The position numbers and the translations under genes were made by a program. This document shows, piece after piece, positions 8,184-29,210 of a stretch of DNA of 33,235 bases (position 1 is the first letter of the stretch; each line of letters starts with the position of its first letter). The DNA comes from an uncultured Spirochaetota bacterium. GTDB taxonomy: Bacteria; Spirochaetota; Spirochaetia; SZUA-6; Fen-1364. The notes below the pieces were generated by a model. That model saw only the letters and a list, made by a program, of their open reading frames with translations, did no database searches and was not told where the DNA came from. Where the stretch lies: positions 1-33,235 of the forward strand of contig CAVUXE010000030.1 in NCBI GenBank assembly GCA_963745235.1, in the 5' to 3' direction.

Positions 8184-8257
8184 GGGGGGTATAAAGACAC
8201 GGCAAGCTCTCGCCGCGTTCGTCCTACGCAATCCTAGCGTGTAGGATTTTGGAGATT
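8184..8257 (+). repeat. ACACGGC-N10-CGCGTT element, copy A (upstream of ankyrin gene 1)
   Basis: GGGGGGTATAAAG ACACGGC aagctctcgc CGCGTTCG ... GATTTTGGAGATT; homologous to the copies at 18966, 20164, 25999(-) and 29150. Confidence 0.75.
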
Positions 8258-8293
8258 TACAGTGAAGCAGGCGTTTGGCCACGGAGGCACAAC

Positions 8294-9358
8294 GTGAAAA
8301 AGAGAATAGTCGTAGTAGTAGCTCTCGCGGTCCTTATGGTAGCTTCGGCGTACGCACAGGCGACGGATTTCTTTGAGCTTGTAAAGGCAGGAACCCCTCA
8401 GACGGTACAGACCGCGATCGACAAGGGCGCGAGGGTGAATGCGCAGGACAAACACGGCAACACTCCCCTCAAATATGCTGCTGAGATGAACCCTGAGGTA
8501 ATTACTACGCTTCTGAAAGCCGGCGCGAACATCAACACCCAAAACAACGATGGTGTGACTGCGCTTATGGCTGCCGCTGAAAAACAGAACGCCGTGGCAA
8601 TCACTACGCTCCTGAAAGCTGGCGCCAACGTCAACACGCAGAATAAAGACGGTGGTACCGCGCTGCTCGTCGCTGCTGGGTACGATCAGAACGCCGAGGT
8701 GATCACTACGCTCCTGAAAGCTGGCGCTAACGTCAACACGCAGAATAAAGATGGCGTGACTGCGTTGATGAATGCCGCTACGAATAACCAGAATGCTGAG
8801 GTAATCACCACGCTCCTGAAGGCTGGCGCCGACATCAATATTCAGGACAAGGCCGGCCAGACTGCGTTGATCTACGCCGCGGCGGCTAACCACAACCCTG
8901 AGGTGATCACCACGCTCCTGAAAGCCGGCGCGGACATCAATACTCGAAACAAGGATGGCGTGACCGCGCTGCTCTACGCCGCCGCGACTAACCACAGCCC
9001 TGAGGTGATCACCACGCTGCTGAAGGCCGGCGCGGACATCAATAACCGGGACAAGTACGGCCAGACTGCGTTGATGGTTGCCGCCGGAAAAAAACAGAAC
9101 GCCGAGATAATCACCACGCTCCTGAAGGCTGGCGCAGACGTCAACGCCTATAGCGACAACGGATCTACCGCATTGATGATTTCGGCTGCCAAAAACCCAT
9201 ACCCCGAGGTGATTGCGGCACTGCTTAAAGCTGGCGCGAACGCCAAAGGGAAGGACCGAGTGGGGAAAACTGCTTATGACTACGCTCGACAAAACGAGAA
9301 GCTGACAGGAACTGACGCCTATCGGCAGCTTGAAGAAGCGTCCAAGCGGGCTCCATAG
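8294..9358 (+). CDS. Secreted ankyrin-repeat protein (signal peptide, N-cap, 8 internal repeats, C-cap)
   Basis: GTG at 8294 after GGAGG; signal peptide ending ASAYA; eight GxTaLmxAA..N.EVITTLLKAGA repeats. Confidence 0.93.
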   Translation: MKKRIVVVVALAVLMVASAYAQATDFFELVKAGTPQTVQTAIDKGARVNAQDKHGNTPLKYAAEMNPEVITTLLKAGANINTQNNDGVTALMAAAEKQNAVAITTLLKAGANVNTQNKDGGTALLVAAGYDQNAEVITTLLKAGANVNTQNKDGVTALMNAATNNQNAEVITTLLKAGADINIQDKAGQTALIYAAAANHNPEVITTLLKAGADINTRNKDGVTALLYAAATNHSPEVITTLLKAGADINNRDKYGQTALMVAAGKKQNAEIITTLLKAGADVNAYSDNGSTALMISAAKNPYPEVIAALLKAGANAKGKDRVGKTAYDYARQNEKLTGTDAYRQLEEASKRAP

Positions 9359-9545
9359 AGTGAGCAAACAATCGGCGGAGAGGAGGTGAGGGCACAGCGG
9401 CTTGACGCGCATCATAGTAGAAGCGTCCAAGCGGGCTCCATAGAGTGAGCAAACAATCGGCGGAGAGGAGGTGAGGGCACAGCGGCTTGACGCGCATCAT
9501 AGTAGAGGAGGTGAGGGCACAGCGGCTTGACGCGCATCATAGTAG
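9334..9545 (+). repeat. Nested tandem duplication (85 bp x2 plus an extra 40-bp copy) ending in an IS110-like right end
   Basis: 9334-9418 equals 9419-9503, and 9504-9543 repeats the last 40 bp. Each unit ends GCGGCTTGACGCGCATCATAGT, versus GCGGCTTGACACGCACCATAGT at 8081-8102. Confidence 0.9.
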
Positions 9546-9546
9546 T

Positions 9547-10050
9547 ATGAAGAGCCGAAAGTATATATCTCTGTCGTTTTTGTTGATCCTGAGCGTCACA
9601 GCGTTGGGATGCTCCCCAAAAACGCAAAGCAGTAGTGGGTCTGCTCAAGGGAATCAAGCGACTAACACGAGTAGTTCTGGGAAGCTTCGAGAGGTTCAGC
9701 TTGATTTTGGCGGCCATTTATCCGAAGGAGGGATGATTTCCGCGTACTATGATGACAAAGACAAGCTGGCCTATTTTGAGGTGTACCTGGCCGGTGAGCG
9801 GGGGAAAGTTACGTATCACTTTGAGAATCTTGATTCTGATCAGATCTCAATTCAACGCACAGAGTACGCTTACGATAAGTCAATCAGTGAGGGGCAAGTC
9901 AGTATCGTTTCGCAGAAAGAGGAGAAATTCCTCCTCGAGAATGGCAAACAGTACAAAATAGAGGACGGAAAAAAGACTGAGCAAACCAATAAGAACTACA
10001 TTCTTTTGTACAACGAGGCGATGCGGACGATCAAGGAAGGTAAGAAATAA
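9547..10050 (+). CDS. Lipoprotein of unknown function
   Basis: MKSRKYISLSFLLILSVTALGC lipobox, Ser-rich linker, globular domain; ATG at 9547. Confidence 0.8.
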   Translation: MKSRKYISLSFLLILSVTALGCSPKTQSSSGSAQGNQATNTSSSGKLREVQLDFGGHLSEGGMISAYYDDKDKLAYFEVYLAGERGKVTYHFENLDSDQISIQRTEYAYDKSISEGQVSIVSQKEEKFLLENGKQYKIEDGKKTEQTNKNYILLYNEAMRTIKEGKK

Positions 10051-10502
10051 CACCCGTGAAGGAAGCGGCTTCGGGACGGCGGGGGATCTAGTAAGACGGC
10101 TCGGGCATCCCTGCCATCGCCGTTGCGTGGAATTGTAGTGTCACCCTGCCGCTGCCGCGCGGAGCGCTGACCGCTGGGGCCGGCCGTGCGCCGAAGGCGC
10201 CGTCACCTTCCGTCGCGGCCGAGCACAAAGGAGCAAGGGCTTTCTGTAGGGAAGAGCTGTGAGCCAGGACGGCGAAGCGGCGATGAGCGTACAGAAACCG
10301 TGGCCCCCCTGAGAGTCTCCCCCTCCCAGACGTCTGGAGGGTACCATAGCCGGTGGGTGTGCAGAGCGGGTAGGACGGGGAGGGCGGAGACGGCAGGGGG
10401 GCGAGGGAAGCCTGAAGCGATGAGCAGGGCAAAGACCTGCGAGATTAGTCCTTCCCGGACGCGCGTGGTGGGCCTCCGGTTGCCGTATCTTTTTCCATGG
10501 CC

Positions 10503-10559
10503 CCGTTGTACGGTTGTTCGGCGGCCGAGTATCGCCGGCGATACTCATTTCTGGGCTGA
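10503..10559. repeat. ~55-bp direct repeat, copy 1, containing a perfect 20-bp palindrome
   Basis: CCGTTGTACGGTTGTTCGG...GAGTATCGCCGGCGATACTC (10527-10546)...TTCTGG. Confidence 0.8.
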
Positions 10560-10576
10560 TGCTGTAGGGCAAGATT

Positions 10577-10891
10577 GTGAAAATCAACTGGGATAACTGG
10601 ACTCCTCGGGCATGGATGACAGAGAAGTTTCTCGACTGGATTGCGAAAAGGCGAGGAAAGCCTACCATGGCGGAGGAGCACGAAGAATCTGACAAAGCCT
10701 TGCAGTACGCGAAGATTCGCAAGCGATATCCGACTGATTCCTGGAACAGATTGTTGGGGAAATTCCCTGAGCTCAGAAGACTGGAGGAGCGTGCGCGCAA
10801 CTACGACCCAAACAAAGTTGAGAAGCGACGCGCGCTGACAGAGGTTATTGCCTGGTTCAAAAAGAACGACTCTGTCTTGCCGAAGAAGTAA
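10577..10891 (+). CDS. Small basic hypothetical protein between the two palindrome repeats
   Basis: 104-aa charged helical ORF; start is either GTG 10577 or a downstream ATG. Confidence 0.6.
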   Translation: MKINWDNWTPRAWMTEKFLDWIAKRRGKPTMAEEHEESDKALQYAKIRKRYPTDSWNRLLGKFPELRRLEERARNYDPNKVEKRRALTEVIAWFKKNDSVLPKK

Positions 10892-10945
10892 GAAAAGTAA
10901 AGAGGAGAAAGGCCTGGGATGCAAGAATGCATGCGTTGCCCTTAT

Positions 10946-10999
10946 CCGTTGAACGCTTGTTCGGTGGGTGAGTATCGCCGGCGATACTTTCTGGATGAC
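10946..10999. repeat. ~55-bp direct repeat, copy 2, containing an 18-bp palindrome
   Basis: CCGTTGAACGCTTGTTCGG...AGTATCGCCGGCGATACT (10971-10988) TTCTGG. Confidence 0.8.
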
Positions 11000-11436
11000 T
11001 CCGGAAGGAGGACAAGATAAAGAGTGTAAACAGATTTCGATATCTGTTTTCTGCATAGAGAGTTATAGCGTAAACGGGCCTTCGTGCTGTATACAAAAAC
11101 TCTCCAATTCATTACCGGTGGTAAGTTGGCTGTAAACACCTATTTAAGGCGGTTGGACTGCTTGGCTGCCCTCCTATACTCTGGACGCTATCATGAATGA
11201 GAAAGCTTTTCTCATGAATATGAATGAACATAAAACGATTCCTGAGCTTATCAACAGGACTCGCGTTAGCGATCAAAGCGATGCTTGCGGTCTCGCGGTG
11301 ATCGGGCTCATCTATTTGATTTGACTCCTCCCCTCGCATGTTAGACAATATGAGATTATATAACATTTTGGTCTTCTTTAGAATGTGACATCATAGGGAA
11401 ATTCCGAATTCCTTAACGACTTCAAATGATTCAGAT

Positions 11437-11868
11437 TTATTCGCCGGCTTCTTTCCGATCCCGCCTTGGCAAAAGTACGAATCCAAATGTTGTCGCAGAA
11501 TCACGCAAGCGGGAGTCCAAGCAGGCAATCTCGATTGGCTCCTGAATTGCGTCCCTGATCTCACAGGCTGTCGCAAGGTGAATCGCGTCAAGGCTGCGTA
11601 GGCGCCCAAATTTCCTGTCAGCCCTGATGCGTGCGGTAATACGCTCGTCAAGGATGCGAAACTGCACCGCTTTCATCAGAGAGTCCATAAAGCGCCAAAC
11701 GTCGACGCGGACTTTGTGACGATGAAGGGCGACCAGAGTCTCAGCTTGCAGGAGGATAGATGAGAAGCGGAGGTGCGTCGCGTCCCAATACGCTTTGTAA
11801 TCATCCGACCCCTGTTCAGCGAACAGAAACGAGAGCACAAAACTGGTATCGATGTAGACCGCCTTCAC
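11437..11868 (-). CDS. vapC: PIN-domain (VapC-like) toxin
   Basis: YIDTS, AET and LRSLDAIHLATA PIN motifs; overlaps the antitoxin stop. Confidence 0.88.
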   Translation of the reverse strand: MKAVYIDTSFVLSFLFAEQGSDDYKAYWDATHLRFSSILLQAETLVALHRHKVRVDVWRFMDSLMKAVQFRILDERITARIRADRKFGRLRSLDAIHLATACEIRDAIQEPIEIACLDSRLRDSATTFGFVLLPRRDRKEAGE

Positions 11869-12176
11869 GTAAAACGCTCCTCTCGTTGTTCGTTGAGAGT
11901 TGGACGCCAGTCCCCGCGCGGCTTGGAGATGCGAGCTTTCCGGAAGAGTTCTTCGAAGTTGAGAACGCTGTCTGTCGTGGCCGGTGTAAGCAGACCTCGC
12001 GCAGTGAGCTCTGTGATATAGCGGTCAATCCGCTCTGAGGAGAGGCTCGTTGACCGAGCACGGATCTCGGCAATTGGAGCATTGCGATCCAGTACGATAA
12101 CTGTTTCTCCCCCGCGCACAATACCCAGATAATGAGAAAGGCGATTTTTGAGCTCTCGGATTTTGACAGTGACCAT
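11865..12176 (-). CDS. Phd/YefM-family antitoxin
   Basis: MVTVKIRELKNRLSHYLGIVRGGETVIVLDRNAPIAEI is a Phd/YefM signature. Confidence 0.88.
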   Translation of the reverse strand: MVTVKIRELKNRLSHYLGIVRGGETVIVLDRNAPIAEIRARSTSLSSERIDRYITELTARGLLTPATTDSVLNFEELFRKARISKPRGDWRPTLNEQREERFT

Positions 12177-12182
12177 ATAATA

Positions 12183-12211
12183 AATGTAGCCACCGAAGCT
12201 ACAGGTGTCAA
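12183..12211 (-). promoter_or_regulatory. TA promoter with overlapping palindromic operator; leaderless
   Basis: Minus strand TTGACA-17-TACATT, 6 nt before ATG; TGTAGC-N7-GCTACA at 12185-12203. Confidence 0.75.
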
Positions 12212-12331
12212 GATGCGACGGCGACCCGTCTCGAAAAGGATTTGAGACTTCCAAGCGTTGGCATCATCGCAGATCGAAGGCTTCTGCGAGCGCCGGGCTC
12301 CTTTCGCAACTTAAACATACTTTCTCAACGA

Positions 12332-12721
12332 CTACCGCAGTTTCAGGCTCGTCTTGAGGGTTGCAACGAGGGTCTTGGGATCCGCTGGTTTTTGGAAAAT
12401 GCCTGCGAGTCCCAGCTGCTGGGTGTCGATGTTGTACCGCACCGAATCCCCGGCGGCGCTCAGGAGGTAGATTGGGCAGGTGAAACCAGCACTCTTCAGC
12501 TTGGTGGAGACCTTGCTGCCAGCGTCCACCGTCTCCATCATCAAGTCCAGGATGATTGCATCCAGCCTTATTTTCTCAGCTATTTTCATCCCCGCAGTCC
12601 CCTCCGCGGCCTCCCCTACCGTAAATCCCGCCGATTCGAGAATGATGCGCAAGGTCGCGCGCACGTCGGGGTCATCGTCGATGACGAGGATTGTCTTTAT
12701 CACTTCTTTTGTTTCCGCCAT
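12332..12721 (-). CDS. Single-domain response regulator (REC)
   Basis: ILVIDDD, IILDLMM, LLSA, QKP; RBS AGGAGGTGA. Confidence 0.88.
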   Translation of the reverse strand: MAETKEVIKTILVIDDDPDVRATLRIILESAGFTVGEAAEGTAGMKIAEKIRLDAIILDLMMETVDAGSKVSTKLKSAGFTCPIYLLSAAGDSVRYNIDTQQLGLAGIFQKPADPKTLVATLKTSLKLR

Positions 12722-12724
12722 AAA

Positions 12725-13211
12725 AGCCTCACCTCCTCTTGCGAGCAGCACGTCAAGGAGCTCAATGACAGCGCGAGCATTCCGCTGCGCTTTCCTGCTC
12801 AGTCCCCTCACCGCCGCCAAAATTATATCCACGGACACCTACCAGCCATGCCAACGGTCGCGCCGCGAGGCTCGATTCGCAAAGAGCCAGCAGGACCTCC
12901 GGGCTCGAGAGGTGCGTCGTAAACCCGACGTCGATCATCGGCAGCGAGCCTGATGCTGCTGCGCCCAACTGCCTGACTTTGAACGGCTCAGGTCCGACGC
13001 GGGCCGCATCCAGAAAAAGAACAACCTTGTGGCGCGCCATATCGACACAGCATTCGATTCCGAGCTGAAAGTCCGTCTGGACCGTCATACGCTCGCCGTG
13101 TCGTCGCTGCATCTCCTGGGCAATCCACGGCCCCAAACCGTCGTCCCGCCTGCCAGGGTTCCCATACCCCAAAAGAAGAACCGAGGCTCCTTTCCCTTGG
13201 CGGTTGTTCAC
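12725..13211 (-). CDS. Hydrogenase maturation protease (HoxW/HycI-like), frameshift near 12805; 3' end uncertain
   Basis: LLGYGNPGRRDDGLG, LFLDAA, TH; the C-terminus GEGLSRKAQRNARAVIELL lies in the neighbouring frame. GTG overlaps the hoxH stop. Confidence 0.82.
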
Positions 13212-14070
13212 GTTTGTCCGCGGACCTTTCTGTCCACGACCCGACCGCGCGAATCGACGAGTGACCCTTCGAGGGCCATCCTGCCCAGCGCGTGCGTCGC
13301 GCAACTCAAACAGGGATCGAAGGCCCGGATGGCGACTTCCACCTTGTTGAGCAGGCCCTCCGTGATCTGTCGGCCGGAAAGCTCCTCCTGGGCTACCCTC
13401 TGAACCGCCCTGTTCATTGGCTCGTTATTGCTCGTCGTTGATACGATGAGATTCGCCATCTCAATCGTGTCGTCACTGCGGACACGGTAGTGATGAAAGA
13501 GGGTCCCTCGAGGCGCCTCGATGCATGCCGCACCTTCGCCGCGACGGGTCCCGCTCACCACAAGGTCTACGCCCTGGAGATCGGGGTCGGAGAGCAACTC
13601 CTTCATTTTCTCCGCGGCATGGAGGGTCTCGATGAGCCGCGCCCAGTGGTAGGCGAGGGTCGCATGCACCGGCCTACCCTCTCCAAGCTTCAAGAACTCC
13701 CTTCGCTCCTCTTCAGCAAGCGGCGTGTCGATGAAATCGCAATTGTTCAGCCGCGCCAGCGGCCCCACGCGGTACCAACCCTTCTCTTTCCCGAGGGGAT
13801 GGATAAACGGAAACTTCATGTAGCTCCAAGGACGGACTTCCTCGCGGATCACGCTGAGGTAGTCGCGCGGCTGGACCTTGTCGAAGATGATTCTGCCGTC
13901 CGAATCTTTCGCTCGAAGAAGTCTGTCATACAGGTCCAAGGCGCCGTCAGAGCGCACGAGGCTCACGAAGTTGCTCTCGAAGCTCGCAAAATCGAGGAAG
14001 TACTTCCTGTTCTCTCGAAACAGTTTTTTGAACAGCTCCAGGGCCTCCCCCGCCCAAGGGATCATCGCCG
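13208..14070 (-). pseudogene. hoxH: Group 3 [NiFe]-hydrogenase large subunit (HoxH-like), 3' portion only
   Basis: WSYMKFP, YRVGPLARLN, EAPRGTLFHHY, and L2 motif DPCLSCATH. The L1 RICGxC motif is absent and homology stops at about 14070. Confidence 0.88.
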
Positions 14071-14105
14071 ACCGACACGAGGACGCGGGTCGCCTTTCGA
14101 CGATA

Positions 14106-14480
14106 TCAAGCCGCGCTGCACGGGATACGGCGGCCTGTCTCGAGGCGCGCCCCTTTTCCGTGCAGTACGACGAGAACGTGCATGTGCTGCGCTTGTTGTC
14201 GACTGATTTGGAGCACAGCCGCGCCTGGGAGGGCACACCGGAGGATCTCACGGAGGTCCGAATCTTGCACGTTCGGACTGGGGCGAGCTGTTGTGAGGAT
14301 CGGCAAGATATTCATCAGGGTGCGACCGGCATTTACACGGCCGGAAATGCACTCCCCGGATGCAAAATTAAACCTGGGGCGAATGGAGAATCTCTGTCTC
14401 TCCTCGCCCCCTACCCTCAAGGAGCGAAGAAGTGTGCCAAGCGAACAATCCCGCACCCTGCCGTTCACCTTTCCCTCCAC
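14106..14480 (-). CDS. Hypothetical ORF translationally coupled to the recombinase (may be degraded)
   Basis: GTG overlaps the recombinase TAG; no recognisable motif. Confidence 0.3.
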   Translation of the reverse strand: MEGKVNGRVRDCSLGTLLRSLRVGGEERQRFSIRPRFNFASGECISGRVNAGRTLMNILPILTTARPSPNVQDSDLREILRCALPGAAVLQISRQQAQHMHVLVVLHGKGARLETGRRIPCSAA

Positions 14481-15361
14481 TACAACTCCTCCCCGTTGAA
14501 AAGCTCGTCATCAGTGAGAGAGTCCCGCACATAGAATCGCGCCGTTGTAGCGGTGGAAGCGTGGCCCAGCATCTCGGATACTCCTTTGAGGCGTCTGGTC
14601 TTCTGAAACAGGTCCGTGGCCCGTGAGTGCCGTAGATTGTGCGCTGTGATCCGCCGATTCAACACCCTTCGGGCTGCCCTGGCAATCTCCCGCGTCACGT
14701 ATTGTCTCGAGAAGGGGCCACCATTGTGGCTCTCGAACAGGTACACCCTCCCCTTCTTCCCATACTCTCCCTCGATCTCTTCAAACAAACTAACAGGGAT
14801 TCTCACCCAACGCTCCTTGCGGCCCTTCCCATGGAAGCGTAGGAGTACACGGTCTCCATCGTCCTTGAGGTCCGTGAGCCTTACCTTGAGGCCCTCGGTA
14901 ACCCGCGCAGCGGTCGCGTAGAGGAAGCGTGCGATAAGGCGCACCCGTAGGGGCAGCGCTGCGATCAGGCGCGCGCGCTCCTCGGGTGAGATCACCCTAA
15001 TCTCGGGCGTGTTCGTCTTTGCCCCAGGGATAGAGTCCAGGGCAATTTTCAGCATGGCAAGCTCGCGGCTGCTCATGCCCTGGCGCTGAGCGGCTTGTAG
15101 AATGGCCGCCTTGCCGCCGTAGAGGTCGCGGTTGAGCTTGGAGGCTGATCCTCCCGCTTGGCGTGAATACTCGATGTAAGCGGCGAAGAGCTCAGCGGTT
15201 GGAGAGCGAAGTTCCGCCCAGGCCAGGAAGGCGCGAACAGCGCGCCGGTAGGCATCGGTTGAGAGTGACCCGCGGGCTCGGACTTTCAGCAGCTCGGCGG
15301 CGGGAATGCCCGGAAGGCGTGCGATAATGATGCCCGAAGTACCCTTGGGATTTGTTTCCAT
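14480..15361 (-). CDS. Tyrosine recombinase/resolvase (intact, 293 aa)
   Basis: TAARVTE (R), GKGRKER (K), HNLRH (HxxR), LGHAS (H), TTARFY (Y). There is no obvious integron-integrase insertion before HxLR. Confidence 0.93.
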   Translation of the reverse strand: METNPKGTSGIIIARLPGIPAAELLKVRARGSLSTDAYRRAVRAFLAWAELRSPTAELFAAYIEYSRQAGGSASKLNRDLYGGKAAILQAAQRQGMSSRELAMLKIALDSIPGAKTNTPEIRVISPEERARLIAALPLRVRLIARFLYATAARVTEGLKVRLTDLKDDGDRVLLRFHGKGRKERWVRIPVSLFEEIEGEYGKKGRVYLFESHNGGPFSRQYVTREIARAARRVLNRRITAHNLRHSRATDLFQKTRRLKGVSEMLGHASTATTARFYVRDSLTDDELFNGEEL

Positions 15362-15497
15362 AAGAAAAACTTCGGTGCGACATCAGGCCTCCTGAAGACA
15401 TCGCTGAACAGGTGCAACACGTCAATAGCCGAATCTCCTGTGCAATGCCTCAGCTTCAGTAGAAAGCCAAATGGAGGGACTCCCGCAATCCTCGCTC

Positions 15498-15565
15498 TTC
15501 TAATGCGCTATTTTAGCCCTCTCCGGGCCCCTCCGTAAAGCCATGAAAGGCGCAATGTGCGCGAT
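15498..15565. repeat. ~68-bp direct repeat, copy 1 (candidate recombination/resolution site)
   Basis: TTCTAATGCGCTATTTTAG (19 bp identical)...GTAAAG...AAGGCGCAATGTG.GCGAT, shared with 20681-20748. Confidence 0.8.
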
Positions 15566-15669
15566 CTGGCGCTTCTGTTCGCGCGTGGCGGGGCATGGCG
15601 AGACTTTCTGGAGGCCTGCCGCGTAGTTTATACTCCCTTGGAACGACCATCGAAAGCAGGGGGGCTCTT

Positions 15670-15855
15670 ATGGCGGAGTATCGGCGTTGTCCTTGGTGCG
15701 GTGTGGATGTCACACCGACGGCTCCCATGAAGATAGCGCCAGGGGTTGGCTCGGTCCCCCAGAGCAGCCCGCCGGGCGTATTCTGGGACAGAAATGCTGG
15801 CCAGCACACCGAAAAAGGCTGTCCCTCCATGAAGCGCCTCAAAACCTCAAGGTAA
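15670..15855 (+). CDS. Small putative Zn-binding protein (CPWC...HxxxxC), copy 1
   Basis: Conserved with 30594-30797 and the remnant at about 17977-18080. Confidence 0.6.
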   Translation: MAEYRRCPWCGVDVTPTAPMKIAPGVGSVPQSSPPGVFWDRNAGQHTEKGCPSMKRLKTSR

Positions 15856-15890
15856 CCCCTGGCGCCTTTCCGCTGACGGATAAGAGAATC

Positions 15891-16073
15891 ATGGAAGAGC
15901 AAATTGTTGTGGGAGATGTCGTGAGGTTTAAGGGCGGCGGATCGCCGATGACCGTTGAGAAGATAGAGGGTGACGAAGCTCTCTGTGTCTTTTCACTTGG
16001 CGGTAAACAACGCCTAAAACTTGATGTCCTTGAGAAGGTTGCAGATGAGCCACATTGGTGGGACCGGGGATAG
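15891..16073 (+). CDS. YodC/DUF2158-family protein, copy 1
   Basis: VGDVVRFKGGGSPMTVEKI...CVF matches the YodC pattern GDvVxLKSGGPxMTV. Confidence 0.8.
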   Translation: MEEQIVVGDVVRFKGGGSPMTVEKIEGDEALCVFSLGGKQRLKLDVLEKVADEPHWWDRG

Positions 16074-16326
16074 GGAGGGACGCCCTACCGTCACCAGAGC
16101 CACTTTCATTTTTGACTCACCGTGGAGTAGCACTTGTGGGCCCCTCGCCGGACGGAAATGAAGTCCGGGGGCACGACTCGCGACATAAGATCGGAACTGC
16201 TGGGGGCTGTTCGGGGTCCGGCGTTAGAGTGAAGCCCTCCGAGTCCTAAACTACTGTTGCGACTCTTCAGGCGTGTAACGGCAGTCCTCGTAGTACTGAT
16301 TGACCGCGAAGATGGTAGCGGATGTG

Positions 16327-16557
16327 ACGGCCCATAAATCGGAAGTAGGAGAAAGGAGCAGTCACTTGTGCGTGTGCTGGCATCGCCGCGGCTCCCGCCT
16401 GGACGCTAACCATTGCAACTCCACGCACACGAAGACCGTCGACGACTCGCTTTCGATACCAATCGCTTCGGTTGAACTCGATTGCAAGAGGAAGTTCTTT
16501 TAAACAGTCGCACAACGCTGCGAGTTGCTTCCGGGATGACTGCGAATATTGAAACCA
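16327..16557 (-). pseudogene. DUF72 (YecE-like) internal fragment
   Basis: PLAIEFNRSDW ... VTAPFSYFRFMGR resemble the DUF72 motifs AVEFRhxsW and YxRfHGR. Confidence 0.65.
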
Positions 16558-20134: not shown

Positions 20135-20163
20135 CAAAGGTGGCCGTTCCGAGGAGTGCAATC

Positions 20164-20219: not shown

Positions 20220-20261
20220 CGAAAGACGTCAGCCACGAAATCGGGAGAAACTGCGGACCAA

Positions 20262-20680: not shown

Positions 20681-20748
20681 TTCTAATGCGCTATTTTAGG
20701 TCCCCAGGGGCCCTCTGTAAAGGCTACGAAGGCGCAATGTGGCGCGAT
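20681..20748. repeat. ~68-bp direct repeat, copy 2 (candidate recombination/resolution site)
   Basis: Same orientation and core as 15498-15565. Confidence 0.8.
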
Positions 20749-20771
20749 TTCGTGCACGGAAACCCCTATCG

Positions 20772-22520: not shown

Positions 22521-22617
22521 TGTTTTCCTGACGCCGCTCTTTTAGTAGCAACCGCTATTTTTCGCATCCTGTTCCCCTCCCCTCGAAACCATAGCATCCT
22601 GCTGAGTCGTTCGACGG

Positions 22618-22902
22618 CTAGTTCGATGTTCGCCTCTTTCCGGCCACCGATTCCCTCCTAAGCCATTGACGGAGTATGCTTGAAACTAGGGTTTGATAGG
22701 GAACTCCCCGCTCCAAGGCGCGAGTCTTGAGAGCCATCATATCTCGGCGATTCATGCGGATGTTCATCCGCTCATCTTTGGCCCCGGTCGCCCTGGCGAT
22801 CGCTCGTGCCTTCTCTATCTCTTTGTCGAGATTGTCAATCGATCGCCATTCCCCGTTTTCAATGCTCTTGAGAAGTTCCTTCTCCTCTTTGTCTAGCTTC
22901 AT
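22618..22902 (-). CDS. BrnA/CopG-like ribbon-helix-helix antitoxin
   Basis: KDERMNIRM...LK.RA...GVPYQTLVSSIL. Confidence 0.85.
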   Translation of the reverse strand: MKLDKEEKELLKSIENGEWRSIDNLDKEIEKARAIARATGAKDERMNIRMNRRDMMALKTRALERGVPYQTLVSSILRQWLRRESVAGKRRTSN

Positions 22903-23189
22903 TATTTGCTTCCCTCCTCTCGACCTTGGAGATAACGCTTCGTAAGCTTACGGCTGGGGAATGCGGTCATGAGGAATCGAATATCCCCTCTGTCGACAAA
23001 CGGAACGACCCAAGCATAATTGTCGATTGAGACAATGTAGAGCCGTTGTCCTTCGTATCTCGAAGGATTCGGATGTTCCAGAATATCGAGTGTTCCTCTC
23101 TCTTCTATGGCGACAACGATTTCCTCAAACGAAATGCCTCTGGCTGTCCGTAGCCACTTATTCTTCTCCTCGTTCCAATCGAAGATCAC
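22902..23189 (-). CDS. brnT: BrnT-family toxin
   Basis: FDWNEEKN...RGISFEEIV...TAFPSRK. Confidence 0.82.
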   Translation of the reverse strand: MIFDWNEEKNKWLRTARGISFEEIVVAIEERGTLDILEHPNPSRYEGQRLYIVSIDNYAWVVPFVDRGDIRFLMTAFPSRKLTKRYLQGREEGSK

Positions 23190-23194
23190 GAATA

Positions 23195-23223
23195 AAGGTA
23201 TCTTGATGTGTGCCCAATGTCAA
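23195..23223 (-). promoter_or_regulatory. Leaderless sigma70-type promoter of the BrnT operon
   Basis: Minus strand TTGACA-17-TACCTT, 5 nt before GTG. Confidence 0.65.
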
Positions 23224-23326
23224 TACATCATCTTTCATAAGGGCGATTCGGTCTACCACAAGCTCCTGCCTAGTGAACATGGTGTTCTCCCGCGGAGTCC
23301 TGCCGTGTCATTTCATGGGGTAGCGG

Positions 23327-23494
23327 CTATCGCCGCACAAAAGTAAGAACGGCAATCACGATGGCGGCACCCAAGGCAACCGCTGCTACGATGCTTAGCC
23401 ACAGAGCAGCACGTCTCGCTGTCTTCCTCGCCATCACTCGGCCGACAACTAACAGGGCTACGGCGACCAGGACAGGGATTACTGCAATAAGCAT
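23327..23494 (-). CDS. 55-aa two-helix membrane protein (not in the ORF track)
   Basis: GGAGG-N6-ATG; MLIAVIPVLVAVALLVVGRVMARKTARRAALWLSIVAAVALGAAIVIAVLTFVRR*. Confidence 0.65.
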   Translation of the reverse strand: MLIAVIPVLVAVALLVVGRVMARKTARRAALWLSIVAAVALGAAIVIAVLTFVRR

Positions 23495-23838
23495 CGGGAT
23501 CCTCCGGATGAGATACTAACGCTGAGCCGCGAAGGCCGCAACCGCAAAGGAACAAGACGATGGGGTGGAAAGTCCCGGAAATCCGTGAACCGATGGCCCA
23601 AGGACAAGCAGGATCGGAGAATTCCTACGCTATGTCCGAACCTTATGGAGGGAGCTTAATTTAAGCAAGAATCAATGCGTTCTCGCGCGAGCCGTGTGGC
23701 AGCACTGCCGATAACCGGTTTCTGGTCTACTACGGCATGTCCCCGCTCCGCCGCCGGTGGGCGAGCGCATACAGTAGAAACCCCATGGAATACCGATGTT
23801 CTTCCCAAAGATTCATGTAAACGTCAAAGTCGACTATC

Positions 23839-24486
23839 ATGAACTGGTTGTTTTTCGTATTCGTGTTGTGTGCGATCGCGGCAATACCAATTCACTACGT
23901 GTCGGTCGAGCACGCAAGACTGGAACAGAAACATGGACGGATAACGGGCATCAAGGTCGGCGAGCTCTACGGTCACGTGTCGGCCTACATGCTGTTCGCT
24001 TCCCTCATCGGTCTGTGGTTTTCGCCGCAACCGCGGATTACCATTCCGATCCTTCGCCGCGTGTCCCTCGTTGTTCCCGGCATCCACCACGTCATTCCGG
24101 TGGTGCATCTCATGCTGTTCGTGCCGTTCGTGTTCCTGGGCCTCATTCTGTTGTCACGGTCGGTCTCGGACTTGACAAGGAAGGTGTCTGAAGCGCACCG
24201 CCCGGAGCGCGTGGTCACGACCGGAATCTACGCCCGGGTTCGACACCCACAGTATCTGGGGTTTTTGCTCATGCACGTCGGGTTCTCTCTTCTCATGTCG
24301 GGTACATACTCGTTGATTGCCACGCTCTTCATATTCATGATGTTGTATGCTTTCGCACGCAAAGAGGAGGTCGAGCTCGCGCGAGAGTTCGGTGGCGGCG
24401 AGTACGATGGATATCGGAGGAGTGTCCCAATGCTGATTCCGAGACTTCGAGGAGTGACTATGGGTAGAAGAGGCAGACAGCCTTGA
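23839..24486 (+). CDS. Isoprenylcysteine carboxyl methyltransferase/PEMT-family membrane protein
   Basis: VVTTGIYARVRHPQYLG, KEEVEL..EFG..Y..YRRSVP; multiple TM helices. Confidence 0.88.
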   Translation: MNWLFFVFVLCAIAAIPIHYVSVEHARLEQKHGRITGIKVGELYGHVSAYMLFASLIGLWFSPQPRITIPILRRVSLVVPGIHHVIPVVHLMLFVPFVFLGLILLSRSVSDLTRKVSEAHRPERVVTTGIYARVRHPQYLGFLLMHVGFSLLMSGTYSLIATLFIFMMLYAFARKEEVELAREFGGGEYDGYRRSVPMLIPRLRGVTMGRRGRQP

Positions 24487-24509
24487 TCGCGAGGGATTGT
24501 GGGTACTGC

Positions 24510-24717
24510 CGATAGGAGCGTGGTGATTACCTCTGGATTCTTGTTGAACCGGGCGGCATACATCACCGCGGTCCAGCCGAGGAGCTTGTCCTTGGCGTTG
24601 ACATCTTCGCCTTGGTCAATAGCGGCCTGTATCTGCTGCGGTGTTCCAGTTTCTACCAGTTCAATGAAAGTCCGTCGTCTGGACATATGTCGAAGGCAAG
24701 ACAAAGAAAACCAAAAG
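24510..24717 (-). pseudogene. Ankyrin paralogue fragment (end of signal peptide, N-cap, one repeat), cut at its 5' end by IS3
   Basis: LLVFFVLPSTYVQTTDF / IELVETGTPQQIQAAIDQG...NPEVITTLL; one frameshift near 24668. Confidence 0.82.
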
Positions 24718-25170
24718 TGGGCCTACCCCGAAAATCATGACACAAGGTTAAGCAGTATCTTCAAGGGGTAGTCAATGGACATGGGAGACAAAAGGAAGAA
24801 ATACACCAAGGAGTTCAAGCTTGGTGCCATAAGGCTTCTGGAGTCAGGTACGAAGCCAGGGCACGAGATCGAGCATGACCTGGGGATCGGTAGCGGACAG
24901 ATTTACCGCTGGCGGAAGCAATTCAGTCAGGACGGTGCCAGGGCGTTTCCTGGGAACGGCAAGTCCCGTGATGAGGAATTGGCAGCCCTGCGTAAGGAGA
25001 TCAAGGAGCTGCGCGAGGAGCGGGACATCCTGCGAAAAAGCAACCGCCGTCTTCTTCAGACTACAGAAATGAAGTACGCCTTCATGAGTGAGCAACAGGG
25101 TGCCCATAGCGTAGAGAAGATGGCGCAAGTGTTGGGGGTAGCACGCAGTGGGTTCTATGCCTGGGGCGAC
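24718..25170 (+). mobile_element. IS3-family remnant (left end, orfA, start of orfB)
   Basis: TG-initiated end TGGGCCTACCCCGAAAATCATGACAC; RKKYTKEFKLGAI...IYRWRK...LREERDILRK; MKYAFM...VLGVARSGFYAW, then homology stops. Confidence 0.88.
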
Positions 25171-25319
25171 CGGGCCCACCACGTACCTTATTTGAGACAA
25201 GCAAGACGCCACAGAACATGATTGAGCGGGCAAGCAAGCGCGCGCTCGGTCGACCCTCCGCAGTCCGTGCACCATCCAACTAACCCAGTATCTTAACGCT
25301 GGCCGGACCACCGCGCAGA

Positions 25320-25910
25320 TCACTTAGATGCTTCTTCGAGTTCCCTATAGGCGTCGGTGCCTTTCAGCTTTGCGTTGCCTTGCGCGTAATCGAACGCTGT
25401 CTTTCCTGCACTGCTTTTCGCCTTCCCGTCTGCGCCGGCCTTCAGGAGGATGACGATCACTTCGGGATTCTGATTGTCTTGGGCGGAAGCCATGAGTGGA
25501 GACCGACCGTACTTGTCCCGAGCCTTGAGGTCCGCTCCAGCTTTCAGGAGTGTAGTGATCACCTCGGGGTTCTGGTTGTACCTGGCGGCGAACATCAGCG
25601 CGGTACCGCCGTAGTTGTCCTGAACCATGAGGTCCGCTCCAGCTTTCAGGAGCGTGGCGATCACCTCGGGATTCTGATTGTCTCGGGCGGCAGCCATAAG
25701 CGGAGACCGACCGTAGTTGTCCTGAGCCTTGAGGTCCGCTCCAGCTTTCAGGAGCGTGGTAATCACCTCAGGATTCTGGTTGCTATAGGCGGCGGCCATC
25801 AGCGGGGTTCTACCGCCATAGCCCAGAAAATTCACGTCCGCGCCATTACTGATGGCGGCGTGCACACTCTGTGACGTTCCGGTTCTTACAAACTCGAAGA
25901 AGTCTATCAC
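25320..25910 (-). CDS. Ankyrin-repeat protein, no signal peptide (4 internal repeats)
   Basis: DFFEFVRTGTSQSVHAAI N-cap, four repeats, GKTAFDYAQ...LEEASK C-cap. Confidence 0.92.
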   Translation of the reverse strand: MIDFFEFVRTGTSQSVHAAISNGADVNFLGYGGRTPLMAAAYSNQNPEVITTLLKAGADLKAQDNYGRSPLMAAARDNQNPEVIATLLKAGADLMVQDNYGGTALMFAARYNQNPEVITTLLKAGADLKARDKYGRSPLMASAQDNQNPEVIVILLKAGADGKAKSSAGKTAFDYAQGNAKLKGTDAYRELEEASK

Positions 25911-25943
25911 CTTTCTCTCTTTCCCATCTTGCCGTCGTACAGC

Positions 25944-26012
25944 CCGTTAAACGACGCGCCTGGCGGGCCGTAGACGAACGCGCCCAAGGCCAGCCGTGTG
26001 ATTATACCCCCC
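25944..26012 (-). repeat. ACACGGC-N10-CGCGTT element, copy C (upstream of ankyrin gene 5)
   Basis: Minus strand GGGGGGTATAATC ACACGGC tggccttggg CGCGTTCG TCTACGG...GCGTCGTTT. Confidence 0.78.
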
Positions 26013-26161
26013 TGCTTCTTGCCTGACAGGCTTCGAATCCGCCTGCGATGGAGTTGGCAATCTCACGGAGCAAGAAGTTGGGAGAGATGGAAAACAGCGG
26101 AAAGCATTGGACATCCTGCAGGGGAATCGTACCCTTATGAAGGAGGTGAGGCATCGGTTTT

Positions 26162-26821
26162 ATGGATGAGAAAGGCATCGATCTTGTCCCCATGGTCATC
26201 GAGCAGACCGGCCGCGGAGAGCGGGCCTACGACATATACTCCCGTCTCCTCAAGGATAGGATCATCTTCGTCGACGGAGAGATTTACGACCTGAACGCTG
26301 ATCTCGTGGTCGCCCAGCTCCTATTCCTCGAGAGCCAGGATCCCGAGAAGGACATCCACCTCTACATCGACTCTCCGGGTGGCGCGGTGACGGCGGGTCT
26401 CGCCATCTATGACACGATCCAGTACATCAAGCCGGACGTGCAGACCATTTGTCTCGGAGGGGCTGCCTACTCGGCGGCCCTGCTACTCGCCTGCGGCGCC
26501 AAGGGCAAGAGGATGGCCCTACCCTCCTCGCGCATCCTCATCCACCAGCCCTGGGGCGGGGTGTCCGGCCAGGCGGTTGACATCAGCATCCAGGCCCGGG
26601 AGCTCCTCCGGACTAAGAAGCTCATCGTGTCGTACTTCGCCAGACACACAGGCAAGTCCCCCGAAACCGTGGAGAAGGACCTCGAGAGAGACTACTACAT
26701 GTCTGTCGAGGAGGCCGTCGAGTACGGTCTCATCGACAAGATCCTAAGGCCGTCCTCGCCGGAGAAACCAGGGGCAGGAACAGAAGGTGTTCATCCGCCT
26801 CTTGGTCTGCTGGATGGCTGA
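26162..26821 (+). CDS. clpP: ClpP protease proteolytic subunit with atypical active-site motif
   Basis: [50 protein letters not shown] replaces CxGxAASM. RBS AAGGAGGTGA. Confidence 0.95.
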
Positions 26822-26918
26822 ATCGTCCGAAAAGGCCCTGGGCCAGTCCCACGTTAGACGCCCCCGGCGCCGGAGGCCTGCCACGGAATAACACTCGAAC
26901 GCATAGGAGGCACGAGAG

Positions 26919-27119
26919 ATGTACTTTCGTAACTTCTCAGTCAAAGTCATCCAGGGTCCACACAAGGAGCGGACCTTCGCACTGGGCAGAATCTACCTGG
27001 TCCTCGCAGTTCACTTCGAGAACACAGAATCCAACAAAACCCATGTCCTGCTGGAGGACGATAACCATTCACTCCAGTGGGTCCCATCGAACGAAGTCAC
27101 AGTCAACACGATAGAGTAG
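26919..27119 (+). CDS. Small hypothetical protein
   Basis: AGGAGG RBS; 66-aa beta-rich ORF. Confidence 0.65.
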   Translation: MYFRNFSVKVIQGPHKERTFALGRIYLVLAVHFENTESNKTHVLLEDDNHSLQWVPSNEVTVNTIE

Positions 27120-27148
27120 TTTCCCACCGCACGCGGAGGGGGAAGGAA

Positions 27149-27526
27149 ATGGAAGAGTATAGTCAAGAAGATGCGGATGAAGTCTTTAGGCATGTTTACG
27201 CCACACTGAAGGCGGCGATAGACTTCCTTATCGAAATGAAGGTGGCAAACCCCGAAGATGCCAAGCGGTTCTCAGACTTGGATCGTGAAATGATCGACCT
27301 GCATACCTCACTGGAAGAGCTGTGGATAGACTATGACGCCGATGAGCAGGAAGAAAAAGAGCAAGAACACGAAGACATGGAGCGTGCTGACATAAGCAAG
27401 ACCATGAAAGAAGATGCGAAGACTGAGGTGGAAGAGGAGAGCGAGCAAAACGAACGGCTCTTGGAGGAAGAGATCAGAGCTGATTACAAGCTACCTCCCG
27501 GATGGCCTCTCGATTATCCGAAGTGA
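27149..27526 (+). CDS. Highly acidic hypothetical protein
   Basis: ATG 27149 after GGAGGGGGAAGGA; Glu/Asp-rich. Confidence 0.65.
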   Translation: MEEYSQEDADEVFRHVYATLKAAIDFLIEMKVANPEDAKRFSDLDREMIDLHTSLEELWIDYDADEQEEKEQEHEDMERADISKTMKEDAKTEVEEESEQNERLLEEEIRADYKLPPGWPLDYPK

Positions 27527-27611
27527 TCAGAGCGATCAACAAAAGCGGCTTGCTCTCGTTGCAACAGAAGCCAACCCCCGCGGTCACCACGAAAGAGGGA
27601 GACCGGCCGGC

Positions 27612-27779
27612 ATGATCGTCGGGATCATTCTCTGTCTCACATTATTTCTCCTCGGAGTCCGTGTGGGGATGGAAGTAGCGGCCAAGATCTACGGCGTGAG
27701 GAAGGAGCGCGGAAAAGGGGAGATCCTCGTCGAAGAAGCCTACCGGAAATGGCTCGGGAGTAGGAGAGCTCGCCCGTGA
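27612..27779 (+). CDS. Small membrane-anchored protein
   Basis: MIVGIILCLTLFLLGVRVG hydrophobic N-terminus; GAGGGAG upstream. Confidence 0.45.
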   Translation: MIVGIILCLTLFLLGVRVGMEVAAKIYGVRKERGKGEILVEEAYRKWLGSRRARP

Positions 27780-28135
27780 TCGCCTCCTTGATTTCTCTTT
27801 CAAGCGCCAGGTCAAGGGAAGCCCTCAACTTGTCCGCCCGCTACCGCTCGATCTCAGGACCGCCACGCCCTATGCCGGGCAGTCCACCTCGTCCGCCGTC
27901 TCCATCCTGCAGAGCTTTTCGAGTAAAGTACACGATCCGACTGCCGAAAAGGCAGACGGAAATCCACATAGCTCTGACACGGCTCCGGGATCCCGCTCAT
28001 CGAGGGCCGCTTCTTTTCTTCCCCCTGTACTCCCCGCAGGGTGCATACTCTCCCGCGCCAGGCCATGGTGCGCGCTGAGAGGGCGCGACAGGGGATCCTC
28101 CGGTAGTTCCTGAGTGAAACAGCCTGGCGCTTTTC

Positions 28136-28288
28136 TCAACCCGCTTGCCCAAACACCATGATGCAACAGATGACGAATAGCACGCCGATCGTTCCCATGA
28201 TCAGAAGAAGCATCCACCAGCCCTTCTGAAACATCTCAACGTCAAGGCGTTCTCGAAGGAAGTTGCGCACTCTATTGGTTGTGCTCAC
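28136..28288 (-). CDS. Small single-TM peptide (50 aa, or 32 aa from ATG 28234)
   Basis: GGGAGG before GTG 28288; GWWMLLLIMGTIGVLFVICCIMVFG; TTGACT-18-CATACT upstream on the minus strand. Confidence 0.5.
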   Translation of the reverse strand: MSTTNRVRNFLRERLDVEMFQKGWWMLLLIMGTIGVLFVICCIMVFGQAG

Positions 28289-28454
28289 CCGGTCCCTCCC
28301 CAAAAATAGGGGCCAAGGACGGCAACGCCGAGGCCCCCAGCCCCTTTCAGGACACCTCAACGAGTATGCCAGCGGGATCCCGGCCAAGTCAACGCATCCA
28401 GCAATTGGACCGTATGATATACTCAGCTAAATCAAAACGTCACACCTCTGTGAT

Positions 28455-28501
28455 GGCCCGGTCGGCTTGTGGCGCGACAAGTCGCCCGGGCCTTTCTGTT
28501 T
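28455..28501 (+). terminator. Intrinsic terminator of a possible ~70-nt sRNA
   Basis: GGCCCGG.CGGCTTGT...ACAAGTCG.CCGGGCC followed by TTTCTGTTT; extended -10 TGATATACT at 28415-28423. Confidence 0.55.
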
Positions 28502-28689
28502 GTCGGGTCTCGCTTGCCGGCCCTCTGCCCGAGACTGATCTTTCATGCAGCGTTAATGCGCGGGCACGGAGTCCGGTGGCGGTAAGTCGGCGTTGGTGAT
28601 CATCGCTTTCCCTTGGGAACTGTTACCCAACGCAGGAGATCGTCAGCATGAGGAGAGGCCCCCTATACACCATGCCTCCGTGCCTCTCT

Positions 28690-28727
28690 AAGAAATTGCC
28701 CCCGGGAAGGAGGTGAACCGGGGGCAA
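28690..28727 (-). terminator. Perfect 10-bp hairpin with an anti-Shine-Dalgarno loop and U tail (minus strand)
   Basis: TTGCCCCCGG-TTCACCTCCTTC-CCGGGGGCAA-TTTCTT. Confidence 0.55.
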
Positions 28728-28875
28728 CGATCCCCATGAGAAAAGCTAAGTTAAAGCTTATCGCGATCATCGGCCAAAAACAAAAACTCACCCAGCTTCG
28801 CGATACTCCAAGAGTGAATTTTACTCTCTGCCAGACCTCCTGAGAAGCCGGCTTCCTGTGTGTAACCTTTAAGAC

Positions 28876-29079
28876 ATGGGAGTCTGCAATATGGCTTCAG
28901 ACCAGATCTGTTTCGATGCGGCAAATATTGGCTTTGCGGCGTATTACGAAGTCCCCAGAGACGTCTATCTCAAACTGCAGGCCCTGGCGGACCTAATGAA
29001 AAAGAGTCCCAGCTCTGAGGAGTTCGCAACGAGGCTGCTCTCGCTGCTCGGCCAGGTTGAGTGTGTTCTCAAAGACTGA
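28876..29079 (+). CDS. Small hypothetical protein
   Basis: 67-aa ORF; an alternative ATG follows GGGAG. Confidence 0.5.
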   Translation: MGVCNMASDQICFDAANIGFAAYYEVPRDVYLKLQALADLMKKSPSSEEFATRLLSLLGQVECVLKD

Positions 29080-29143
29080 CGCGGCATAGCCCCGGGCTTT
29101 TACGAACAACAGCCTCTTGTCGGTAACGGTGTTTTTCCCTTGG

Positions 29144-29210
29144 TAGAATACACGGCTAGCCCTCTGCGGATCGCACCACGGGGCAGGGCGAGCGTACGAT
29201 TTTGGAGATT
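29144..29210 (+). repeat. ACACGGC element, copy D (no convincing downstream gene)
   Basis: TAGAAT ACACGGC...; GATTTTGGAGATT starts 48 nt after the ACACGGC start, exactly as in copy A. Confidence 0.7.

Follow-up and report, generated by a model that had tools for sequence, protein, structure and literature searches.

An intergenic sequence element confined to plasmid-like and integrative DNA of an uncultured Spirochaetota family

What is the nature of a short motif that recurs, with fixed internal geometry, between unrelated genes? The question is raised by contig CAVUXE010000030.1 (C30) of an uncultured Spirochaetota bacterium (genome G000, assembly GCA_963745235.1; 5.85 Mb in 104 contigs), the whole of which, 33,235 nucleotides (nt), is called the window here. 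The original prediction, made from the sequence alone, took the motif AYACGGC-N10-CGCGTTSG for a recombination site or the end of a gene-capture system, or else for a shared promoter-leader. In our analysis the motif proved to form the core of an intergenic element, 60–90 base pairs (bp) long and restricted to one lineage, that is located on plasmid-like and integrative DNA of one uncultured Spirochaetota family. As a dispersed intergenic repeat or control site on mobile DNA it is of a kind already known; unusual is its integron-like layout without a folding site.

Copies of the element and their distribution

The strict motif was recovered at all four sites claimed for it, 8197(+), 18966(+), 20164(+) and 25975–25999(−), against an expectation of 0.00 from 100 shuffles, and these are its only occurrences in the whole 5.85-Mb genome. 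Its shorter relative ACACGGCAGG gave 10 window matches with at most one mismatch, compared to 1.91 expected, and was exact at the two predicted positions, 18312(+) and 23299–23308(−). The 29150(+) and 8197 copies indeed have ACACGGC and GATTTTGGAGATT at offset +48 in common, and the predicted distances from preceding stop codons were likewise correct for a YodC-like open reading frame (ORF; 18122–18304, with the element from 18312), for two ankyrin genes (18409–18948, element from 18966; 19478–20134, element from 20164) and for an ORF of 55 amino acids (aa) at 23327–23494(−), with the element from 23308. A looser family was recovered by nhmmer profiles made from the window copies, and 25 copies from this genome went into R1, a covariance model based on sequence only, which was applied at a threshold of E ≤ 1e-4. 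All copies originally listed are real, but the list had missed those at 15566–15636(−), 17163–17233(−) and 30480–30550(−) and a 3′ half at about 19353(+), and the N10-CGCGTTSG rule, although real, fits just one center subtype of the looser family. In 33 kb the window thus holds 8 solid copies and 3 weak ones (19353, 23320 and 29138, partial or variant), as follows:

8185–8255 (+): copy of the CGCGTTCG subtype with the GATTTTGGAGATT tail, AYACGGC from 8197; upstream of ankyrin gene 8294–9358; strict motif; R1 27.3 bits, E 1.3e-5; nhmmer E 1e-6
15566–15636 (−): copy of the GAAAGTCTC subtype in the divergent region between a YodC-like gene (+) and recombinase gene 14480–15361 (−); R1 46.6 bits, E 1.1e-11; paralogous copy on contig C11
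17163–17233 (−): copy directly after the stop codon of a truncated tyrosine recombinase gene; R1 45.1 bits; same layout behind full-length paralogues on C71, on C81 and in genome G007
18300–18390 (+): copy with a 21-nt insertion in the center, 8 nt after the YodC-like stop codon; upstream of ankyrin gene 18409–18948; R1 22.7 bits, E 3.7e-4
18954–19020 (+): copy of the CGCGTTCG subtype with a shortened 3′ end; DUF1488 start codon at 19021 (Pfam DUF1488, E 2.7e-19); strict motif; R1 25.6 bits
19353–19425 (+): partial copy, 3′ half only, with GGCCGCCACGCGCG; upstream of ankyrin gene 19478–20134; weak nhmmer match, E 0.6, model positions 32–73; common to a locus of genome G015
20152–20222 (+): copy of the CGCGTTGG subtype, 30 nt after an ankyrin stop codon; upstream of 74-aa ORF 20333–20557; strict motif; R1 32.7 bits
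23250–23320 (−): 5′ part only (box and ACACGGCAGG); upstream of BrnT-like gene 22902–23189; exact 10-mer; weak nhmmer match, E 0.7, model positions 4–28
25941–26011 (−): top-scoring window copy; upstream of ankyrin gene 25320–25910 (−); strict motif; R1 50.5 bits, E 6.4e-13
29138–29210 (+): variant copy with block 3 replaced and the GATTTTGGAGATT tail; upstream of ORF 29213–29515; weak nhmmer match, E 2; homologous to copies on C8, C74 and C103
30480–30550 (−): copy in the divergent region between YodC-like gene 30827–31009 (+) and LEA_2 gene 29655–30350 (−) (Pfam LEA_2); R1 35.8 bits

The profile scan of the replicon and of related genomes that had been suggested with the original prediction was productive. 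R1 returned 28 matches in G000, 7 of which fall in the window, i.e., in 0.6% of the genome; the eighth solid window copy, with E 3.7e-4, lies just outside the threshold. The remaining copies of this genome neighbor integrase remnants or lie on small contigs that also carry Mob, ParA and integrase genes. Among 39 relatives scanned with R1, the element was present in 15 of the 24 that belong to the same family (including 12 of 20 from the same genus) and in none of the 15 from other families of the order. An even sample of the class gave 2 of 151 genomes, namely G000 and one genome of the same genus, and within the family the number of copies per genome ranges from 0 to 28. Rfam 15 yielded no match at gathering scores, and a permissive scan of 17100–20400 gave three weak hits, none at the element. 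In the plasmid collection the best partial matches covered 26–37 nt with E of at least 0.06. One exact pattern was searched in each of two further collections: in viral contigs it hit 41 loci, none of which scored with R1, and in metagenome contigs it hit 2 loci, one of them with two real copies in an arrangement near-identical to an array of genome G001. The sequence family is therefore new to Rfam, to the plasmid collection and, as far as one exact pattern each can tell, to the viral and metagenome collections.

Truncated or degenerate copies occur in the window (19353, 23320 and 29138) and in a relative, at position 1587 of locus L027 (genome G010, contig C213). At this last locus, two facing copies whose 3′ parts overlap form a unit of ∼130 nt (1476–1587), the sole convergent pair seen.

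Anatomy and folding

The anatomy of the element was profiled over 57 distinct copies from G000 and its relatives, anchored on the A of AYACGGC. In order, the element comprises a G-run, a TRnAAT box, the invariant AYACGGCAGG, a variable center, GGCCCGCCA and a T-run. The G-run occupies positions −14 to −8 and is followed by the box, which extends to −2; upstream of −14 there is no conservation, with no position above 0.3 bits. Within the box, T is found at −7 in 37 copies, A at −4 in 43 and A at −3 in 44, while position −6 is A in 20/57 and G in 29/57, and position −2 is T in 26/57. The most strongly conserved block is AYACGGCAGG itself, at positions 0 to 9, with 1–2 bits per position; GGCCCnCCA lies at 30 to 38 and the T-run at 48 to 50. 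The center falls into at least three subtypes (CGCGTTCG or GATCGTTCG; GAAAACCTC or GAAAGTCTC; and GCGGATCGCG), and the tail downstream of the T-run varies with the downstream gene. The element also contains two direct, asymmetric 10-bp repeats, ACGGCAGGCC at positions 2–11 and ACGGCCCGCC at positions 28–37, which are 26 bp apart and equal at 8 of 10 positions.

This conservation resides in the primary sequence only and not in structure. RNAalifold predicted 0 pairs for the 25-copy alignment. The consensus does hold an imperfect dyad, GGCAGGCC with GGCCCGCC; a hand-drawn stem was paired in 75.8% of cells, which equals the shuffle mean of 75.8% (277 of 500 shuffles were as high), and there was no covariation, indicating that changes in the stem are not compensated. 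Twenty copies folded as RNA gave z-scores of −2.23 to +1.65 with a mean of −0.1, and only one of the 20 fell below −2. None of the three inverted repeats of the window, and none of 17 terminator-like sites in 14000–31500, lies at the element. No inverted repeat of at least 18 nt is present at any copy, which speaks against the terminal inverted repeat of an insertion sequence (IS) or miniature inverted-repeat transposable element, the identity that the original prediction had named as fatal to its own proposal. The negative results for Rfam, consensus fold and covariation thus rule out three general descriptions of the element, namely an attC-like single-strand site, a riboswitch-like leader and a hairpin terminator. 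A tRNA-derived attachment site was also considered and set aside; the window has 0 tRNA genes, and no T-arm-like pairing was found by eye.

The same data bear on a broader role at the RNA level. Such a role could be that of a 5′ leader shared among genes and recognized by a small RNA or a protein, of a 3′ untranslated region element, of a terminator (intrinsic or Rho-dependent) or of a small RNA gene. The box at a fixed distance before AYACGGC, the T-run at +48 to +50 and the frequent position just behind a co-oriented ORF are features that such a role would accommodate. Nevertheless, given the lack of Rfam matches, consensus structure, covariation and coincident terminator-like sites, together with the divergent orientation of 5 of 26 confirmed upstream neighbors, we regard an RNA-level role as very unlikely.

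Gene borders, orientation and promoter signals

Orientation relative to neighboring genes was tallied by hand, using neighbors supported by Pfam together with some for which homology only was the criterion. In 24 of 31 cases the downstream gene is co-oriented with the element, and in 21 of 26 the upstream gene, with the other five upstream genes divergent; one copy only (L040 2559) opposes both of its neighbors. Among 59 distinct copies, 31 have a co-oriented ORF (at least 60 aa, called naively) ending within 45 nt upstream, and in 14 of these the stop codon lies inside the box. As originally claimed, the genes that follow are unrelated: in G000 and relatives they include DUF1488, HNH, AbiU2, DNA methylase, PLD, LEA_2 and BrnT genes, a Phd/YoeB pair and ankyrins. 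A BrnT-like gene (22902–23189) does lie behind the 23308 copy, whereas ORF 29213–29515, after the 29150 copy, had no Pfam or NCBIfam match. In three loci the element stands directly upstream of ParA, and it is found directly behind tyrosine-recombinase, ankyrin, AbiU2 and Mob_Pre genes. It also occupies divergent promoter regions, between YodC-like and recombinase genes, YodC-like and LEA_2 genes, and MobA and a 160-aa gene.

The conservation in primary sequence, the asymmetry, the direct repeats, the confinement to mobile DNA, the position at gene borders and the co-orientation are together best explained by a protein-binding site. We therefore tentatively favor, as the leading but far from settled reading, a double-stranded cis-regulatory site that is asymmetric and belongs with operators, "stoperators" or mobile promoters, and we infer that a protein binds it and thereby affects transcription. 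In such a scheme, a protein encoded by the mobile element or by the host would bind the element as double-stranded DNA, and the bound element would act in one orientation relative to transcription, as an operator where it lies at promoters and, behind stop codons, as a roadblock or an insulator that separates gene modules. The box may give promoter activity in some copies, and the element would spread with the modules that it flanks, in the manner of "putative mobile promoters" and phage "stoperators".

In the original prediction, a shared promoter-leader was the fallback. This suggestion comes nearer to the regulatory reading, and the TATAAT-like hexamers on which it drew are present 5′ of the 8197, 25999 and 29150 copies; moreover, the copy at 25941–26011 was the top promoter-like site of a consensus scan (CTGTCA-17-TATAAT). 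However, a transcription-oriented protein-binding site fits better than a plain promoter. A −35 region shows no conservation (<0.3 bits over the 57 copies), and the second box position, −6, is A in only 20 and G in about half of them, making the box weak as a promoter. Extended −10 motifs (TGnTAnnnT) are concentrated behind the element, with 10 at +60 to +99 among 58 copies compared to 0–2 in any other 20-nt bin, and several genes therefore have a promoter of their own there. These promoter data also weigh against the regulatory reading itself, as do several other points. Seven of the 31 downstream genes are convergent, its length is four to six times that of known operators or stoperators, and no candidate for the binding protein was identified. 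The sole RNA-library evidence in the window, a metatranscriptome contig over 20291–20604, overlaps no element. In addition, the copies that abut the 3′ ends of recombinase genes (8 of 48 recombinase matches) and the copy on a truncated gene, both described below, would be explained more directly by a role in recombination.

Several observations on transcription and translation signals adjoin these results. In both the 18409 and the 19478 ankyrin gene, a TATAAT precedes the start codon by ∼25 nt, at a point well behind the element. A sigma-54 promoter was considered by eye, since GG-N10-GC spacing occurs in some CGCGTTCG-type copies, and was dropped because this spacing fails in the GAAAACCTC type. 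The metatranscriptome contig, from a peat library (run X14), matches 20291–20604 at 100% over the 74-aa ORF 20333–20557. Behind the first copy, at 8262–8297, an 11-codon upstream ORF begins with a GTG at 8262 behind GGAG and ends with a TGA at 8295–8297 that overlaps the ankyrin start codon (GTG at 8294) as GTGA, an arrangement that may reflect translational coupling.

Two known systems resemble the proposed control site. Putative mobile promoters are, according to Nijveen, Matus-Garcia and van Passel (2012; PMC3575422), highly similar noncoding sequences before nonparalogous genes, most of whose families lack an Rfam match and whose mode of movement is described as unknown; the families defined there share no less than 80% identity across a minimum of 50 nt between −150 and −50. 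The element is similar to these in being shared upstream of unrelated genes and in having no Rfam match, but its copies are more diverged and also occur behind stop codons and in convergent regions. The best pairs with unrelated flanks reach 80.0% over 50 nt (C11 14675 and C35 335447) and 84.8% over 46 nt (C30 15636 and C35 335447). The stoperators of Cluster A mycobacteriophages serve, according to PMC3029335 and PMC9283540, both as operators at promoters and as blocks to elongation. Like stoperators (PMC3029335), the element is asymmetric, has many copies per mobile genome, is mainly intergenic and is oriented with transcription; in contrast to the stoperators, which are 13-bp phage sites with a known repressor, it is 60–90 bp long with two related 10-bp repeats, lies on plasmids and islands, and its binding is putative.

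The element might instead be a selfish or neutral dispersed repeat, a non-autonomous mobile sequence or relic without function, kept by duplication or recombination between copies. The range of 0 to 28 copies among genomes of one family, the many truncated or degenerate copies, and the occurrence of co-oriented, divergent and convergent contexts are all compatible with this, and the genome has Y1 transposase genes (4 matches). The Y1_Tnp genes, however, lie on C28, C57 and C75, contigs without copies; there are neither terminal inverted repeats nor a palindrome (the mean fold z-score being −0.1), and no target-site duplication was seen. The orientation bias and the retention of 1–2 bits per position across genera point to selection, and a functionless repeat thus appears improbable. 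REP/REPIN, Correia and ERIC sequences are palindromic or have terminal inverted repeats and number hundreds on chromosomes; the element, unlike them, lacks both features, has at most 28 copies and resides on mobile DNA. In common with the element, those sequences (named in PMC3575422; REPINs also in PMC8049555) are short dispersed intergenic repeats, some with promoters.

Should the element be a shared control site, it would mark a regulon across accessory genes of plasmids and islands in an uncultured lineage of soil and peat spirochaetes. The putative regulon would include secreted ankyrins, toxin–antitoxin pairs, partition genes and recombinases, and would provide a handle for finding the regulator. 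Whatever its function, the R1 model can be used to annotate the family.

Recombination, transfer and the mobile setting

The window is mobile DNA by its Pfam and NCBIfam content: topoisomerase fragments, an ArdC-like gene, a PLD nuclease, SSB, an IS110 transposase, PIN/Phd and BrnT/CopG-like pairs, a HerA-like ATPase, ClpP and five ankyrin genes or fragments. Three of its genes matter for the question of recombination:

14480–15361 (−): Xer-like tyrosine recombinase, 293 aa; Pfam Phage_integrase, E 1.2e-22; below the cut-off of every NCBIfam model
17234–17986 (−): Xer-like tyrosine recombinase with its 5′ end lost, likewise scoring under the cut-off of each curated model; 91–98% identical to full-length paralogues from residue 5 on; breakpoint relative to G007 at 17974/17975
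18122–18304 (+): small YodC-like (DUF2158) gene, from the ORF list and a three-way alignment; paralogues within 15687–16073 and at 30827–31009

Could the element be a double-stranded recombination or attachment site of these co-resident Xer-like recombinases, at which circles carrying one copy integrate into another copy? Integration of this kind would build short arrays of single-gene or small-operon modules between direct copies, without attC. We consider this a lesser possibility. A more elaborate version seems unlikely: Xer-like recombinases from the plasmids and islands of spirochaetes would line up single genes and small operons (some of them in reverse) between direct copies, and the upstream module would keep the 5′ part of the element, the downstream module its tail.

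Several lines of circumstantial evidence are nonetheless consistent with recombination. Cassette-type arrays, with single ORFs between co-oriented sites by a recombinase gene, are present, although all are short (at most five sites): in the window, four to five co-oriented copies lie in 18300–20222 beside the divergent recombinase gene 17234–17986, and on contig C117 of G010 (L039) four copies in 1.6 kb have HNH, ankyrin and unnamed small ORFs between them. Two tyrosine-recombinase families adjoin copies, and 8 of the 48 PF00589 matches in G000 are followed by a copy no more than 250 nt beyond the 3′ end, seven in the same orientation, with the stop codon inside the box or adjoining it. One copy is located on a truncated gene, and the next copy in L040 truncates the gene beside it. 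A conserved 86-aa ORF, which belongs to the convergent downstream neighbors, is found reversed behind the element in three loci whose upstream sequences differ (AbiU2, ankyrin and unannotated), and by our own reading of the copies, center and tail subtypes assort freely. The patchy distribution, from 0 to 28 copies per genome, would also fit. Among blocks repeated within G000, 9 ends of homology fall within 40 nt of an element compared to 1.6 expected, an excess that comes from two module families and is uncorrected for block ends being intergenic.

Other observations argue against a recombination site. In G000, no copy accompanies 40 of the 48 recombinase-domain matches, and the distance to the nearest such match exceeds 400 nt for 18 of 26 confident copies; 8 of the 15 element-bearing relatives lack the adjacent recombinase family in a search with one query. 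By our reading, the 57-copy profile contains no dyad of the 11-6-11 or 13-8-13 type, which are layouts of recombinase sites. Since the element does not fold, it is not a single-strand substrate either. Where copies share flanks, the ends of their alignments are spread between −63 and +72 with no pile-up at a single position, and a G000 island beside a histidine-kinase gene ends ∼330 nt beyond an element. DUF1488 occurs in five contexts, four of which start just behind the element and one of which has no upstream element, and its 3′ junctions all differ. Over 7500–27400, the assembled contigs of four public metagenome runs contained no joint at element ends, a comparison of low power given that such contigs drop rare variants; the sole candidate joint, 15609 to 17973, has a shorter side of 22 letters, and a joint from 19237 to 19428 repeats the form seen in G007. 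A DUF2961 locus was tried as an empty-site comparison and rejected as too diverged.

The genome of G007, another species of the same genus, offers the closest structural comparison. Its contig C18 contains window segments 6693–16608, 16600–17974 and 20679–25358 at 99.8–100% identity with order and orientation kept, ∼16 kb of near-identical DNA in all (L030 and L031), which points to recent transfer of a mobile element between species. Three structural differences separate the two. The IS110 element differs in the flank at its left end; G007 carries an IS-like insert of 5.5 kb, flanked by a 9-bp overlap at 16600–16608; and in G007 338 bp replace window positions 17975–20678, a stretch that contains the entire array (YodC-like gene, three cargo genes and 74-aa ORF). 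The original prediction had proposed testing whether changes in gene presence or absence, or in gene order, break precisely at ACACGGC, but none of the three breaks at the element; the replacement breakpoints lie at 17974/17975, inside the recombinase gene, and at 20678/20679. The window recombinase is therefore 5′-truncated, at about 17975; the ORF as listed, 17234–18241, continues through the antisense strand of the YodC-like gene. A scan of the genome collection with this recombinase found one locus only, the G007 contig, while relatives of the recombinase at less than 60% identity are common on plasmids.

The likeness to integrons lies in layout. In common with attC as described in PMC3053210 and PMC2095811, the element stands directly behind single genes, often over the stop codon, co-oriented arrays lie near a divergent tyrosine-recombinase gene, and a reverse-oriented small operon can lie between sites. 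Unlike attC, which in the same accounts (PMC3053210; PMC2095811) is palindromic and recombined as a folded single strand by the integron integrase, it folds no better than shuffled sequence. The enzymes differ as well: the NCBIfam integron-integrase models gave 23–70 bits on the five of six recombinase sequences that they matched (57–70 bits for the recombinases at issue), far below the cut-offs of 265 and 435. The original claim of recombination sites or gene-capture ends is thus left with circumstantial evidence only, from arrays, two abutting recombinase families and a truncated gene, whereas the G007 breaks, the run joints, the folding and the integrase type tell against it. Should this minority reading be true, the element would represent a second route to gene-cassette arrays, independent of integrons, and would be of interest to the field of mobile DNA.

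Further observations concern the modules around the copies. A YodC-like gene and its upstream region form a module present at 15644–16077, 17980–18308 and 30568–31008 with 83–86% identity, each ending at an element, which is on the promoter side in two and behind the stop codon in one; the ORF at 15687–16073 has a weak Pfam DUF2158 match (E 1.8e-4). In relatives (L040 2150–2560, L041 2170–2700 and L043 7320–7800), a conserved unit of two genes is encoded on the other strand from the flanking elements and consists of a small ORF ending in VEPDDKRAGYTLA and an ORF of 86–90 aa, both without annotation, in the layout of a toxin–antitoxin pair. The IS110-family element at 6693–8150 ends ∼35 nt upstream of the 8185 copy; it has a 216-nt noncoding left end, and ORF 6908–8089 is its transposase (NCBIfam IS110 RNA-guided transposase, E 4e-54). 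None of the three closest IS copies in relatives, among the matches listed, lies at an element (those in G013 and G015 are 83–87% identical).

ORF 13208–14251, within the mobile region, has a C-terminal match to nickel-dependent hydrogenase (Pfam NiFeSe_Hases, E 1.6e-14) and is probably a captured fragment. An ankyrin gene at 24228–25910 appears split by an IS3-type orfA fragment (24775–25221, HTH_Tnp_1), and in a contig of run X2 positions 24573 and 25428 are joined through 26 letters of other sequence. Within the ankyrin gene at 19478–20134, a contig of run X1 skips 102 nt at 19792–19895, equal to one ankyrin repeat unit, which suggests variation of ankyrin repeat number in the population.

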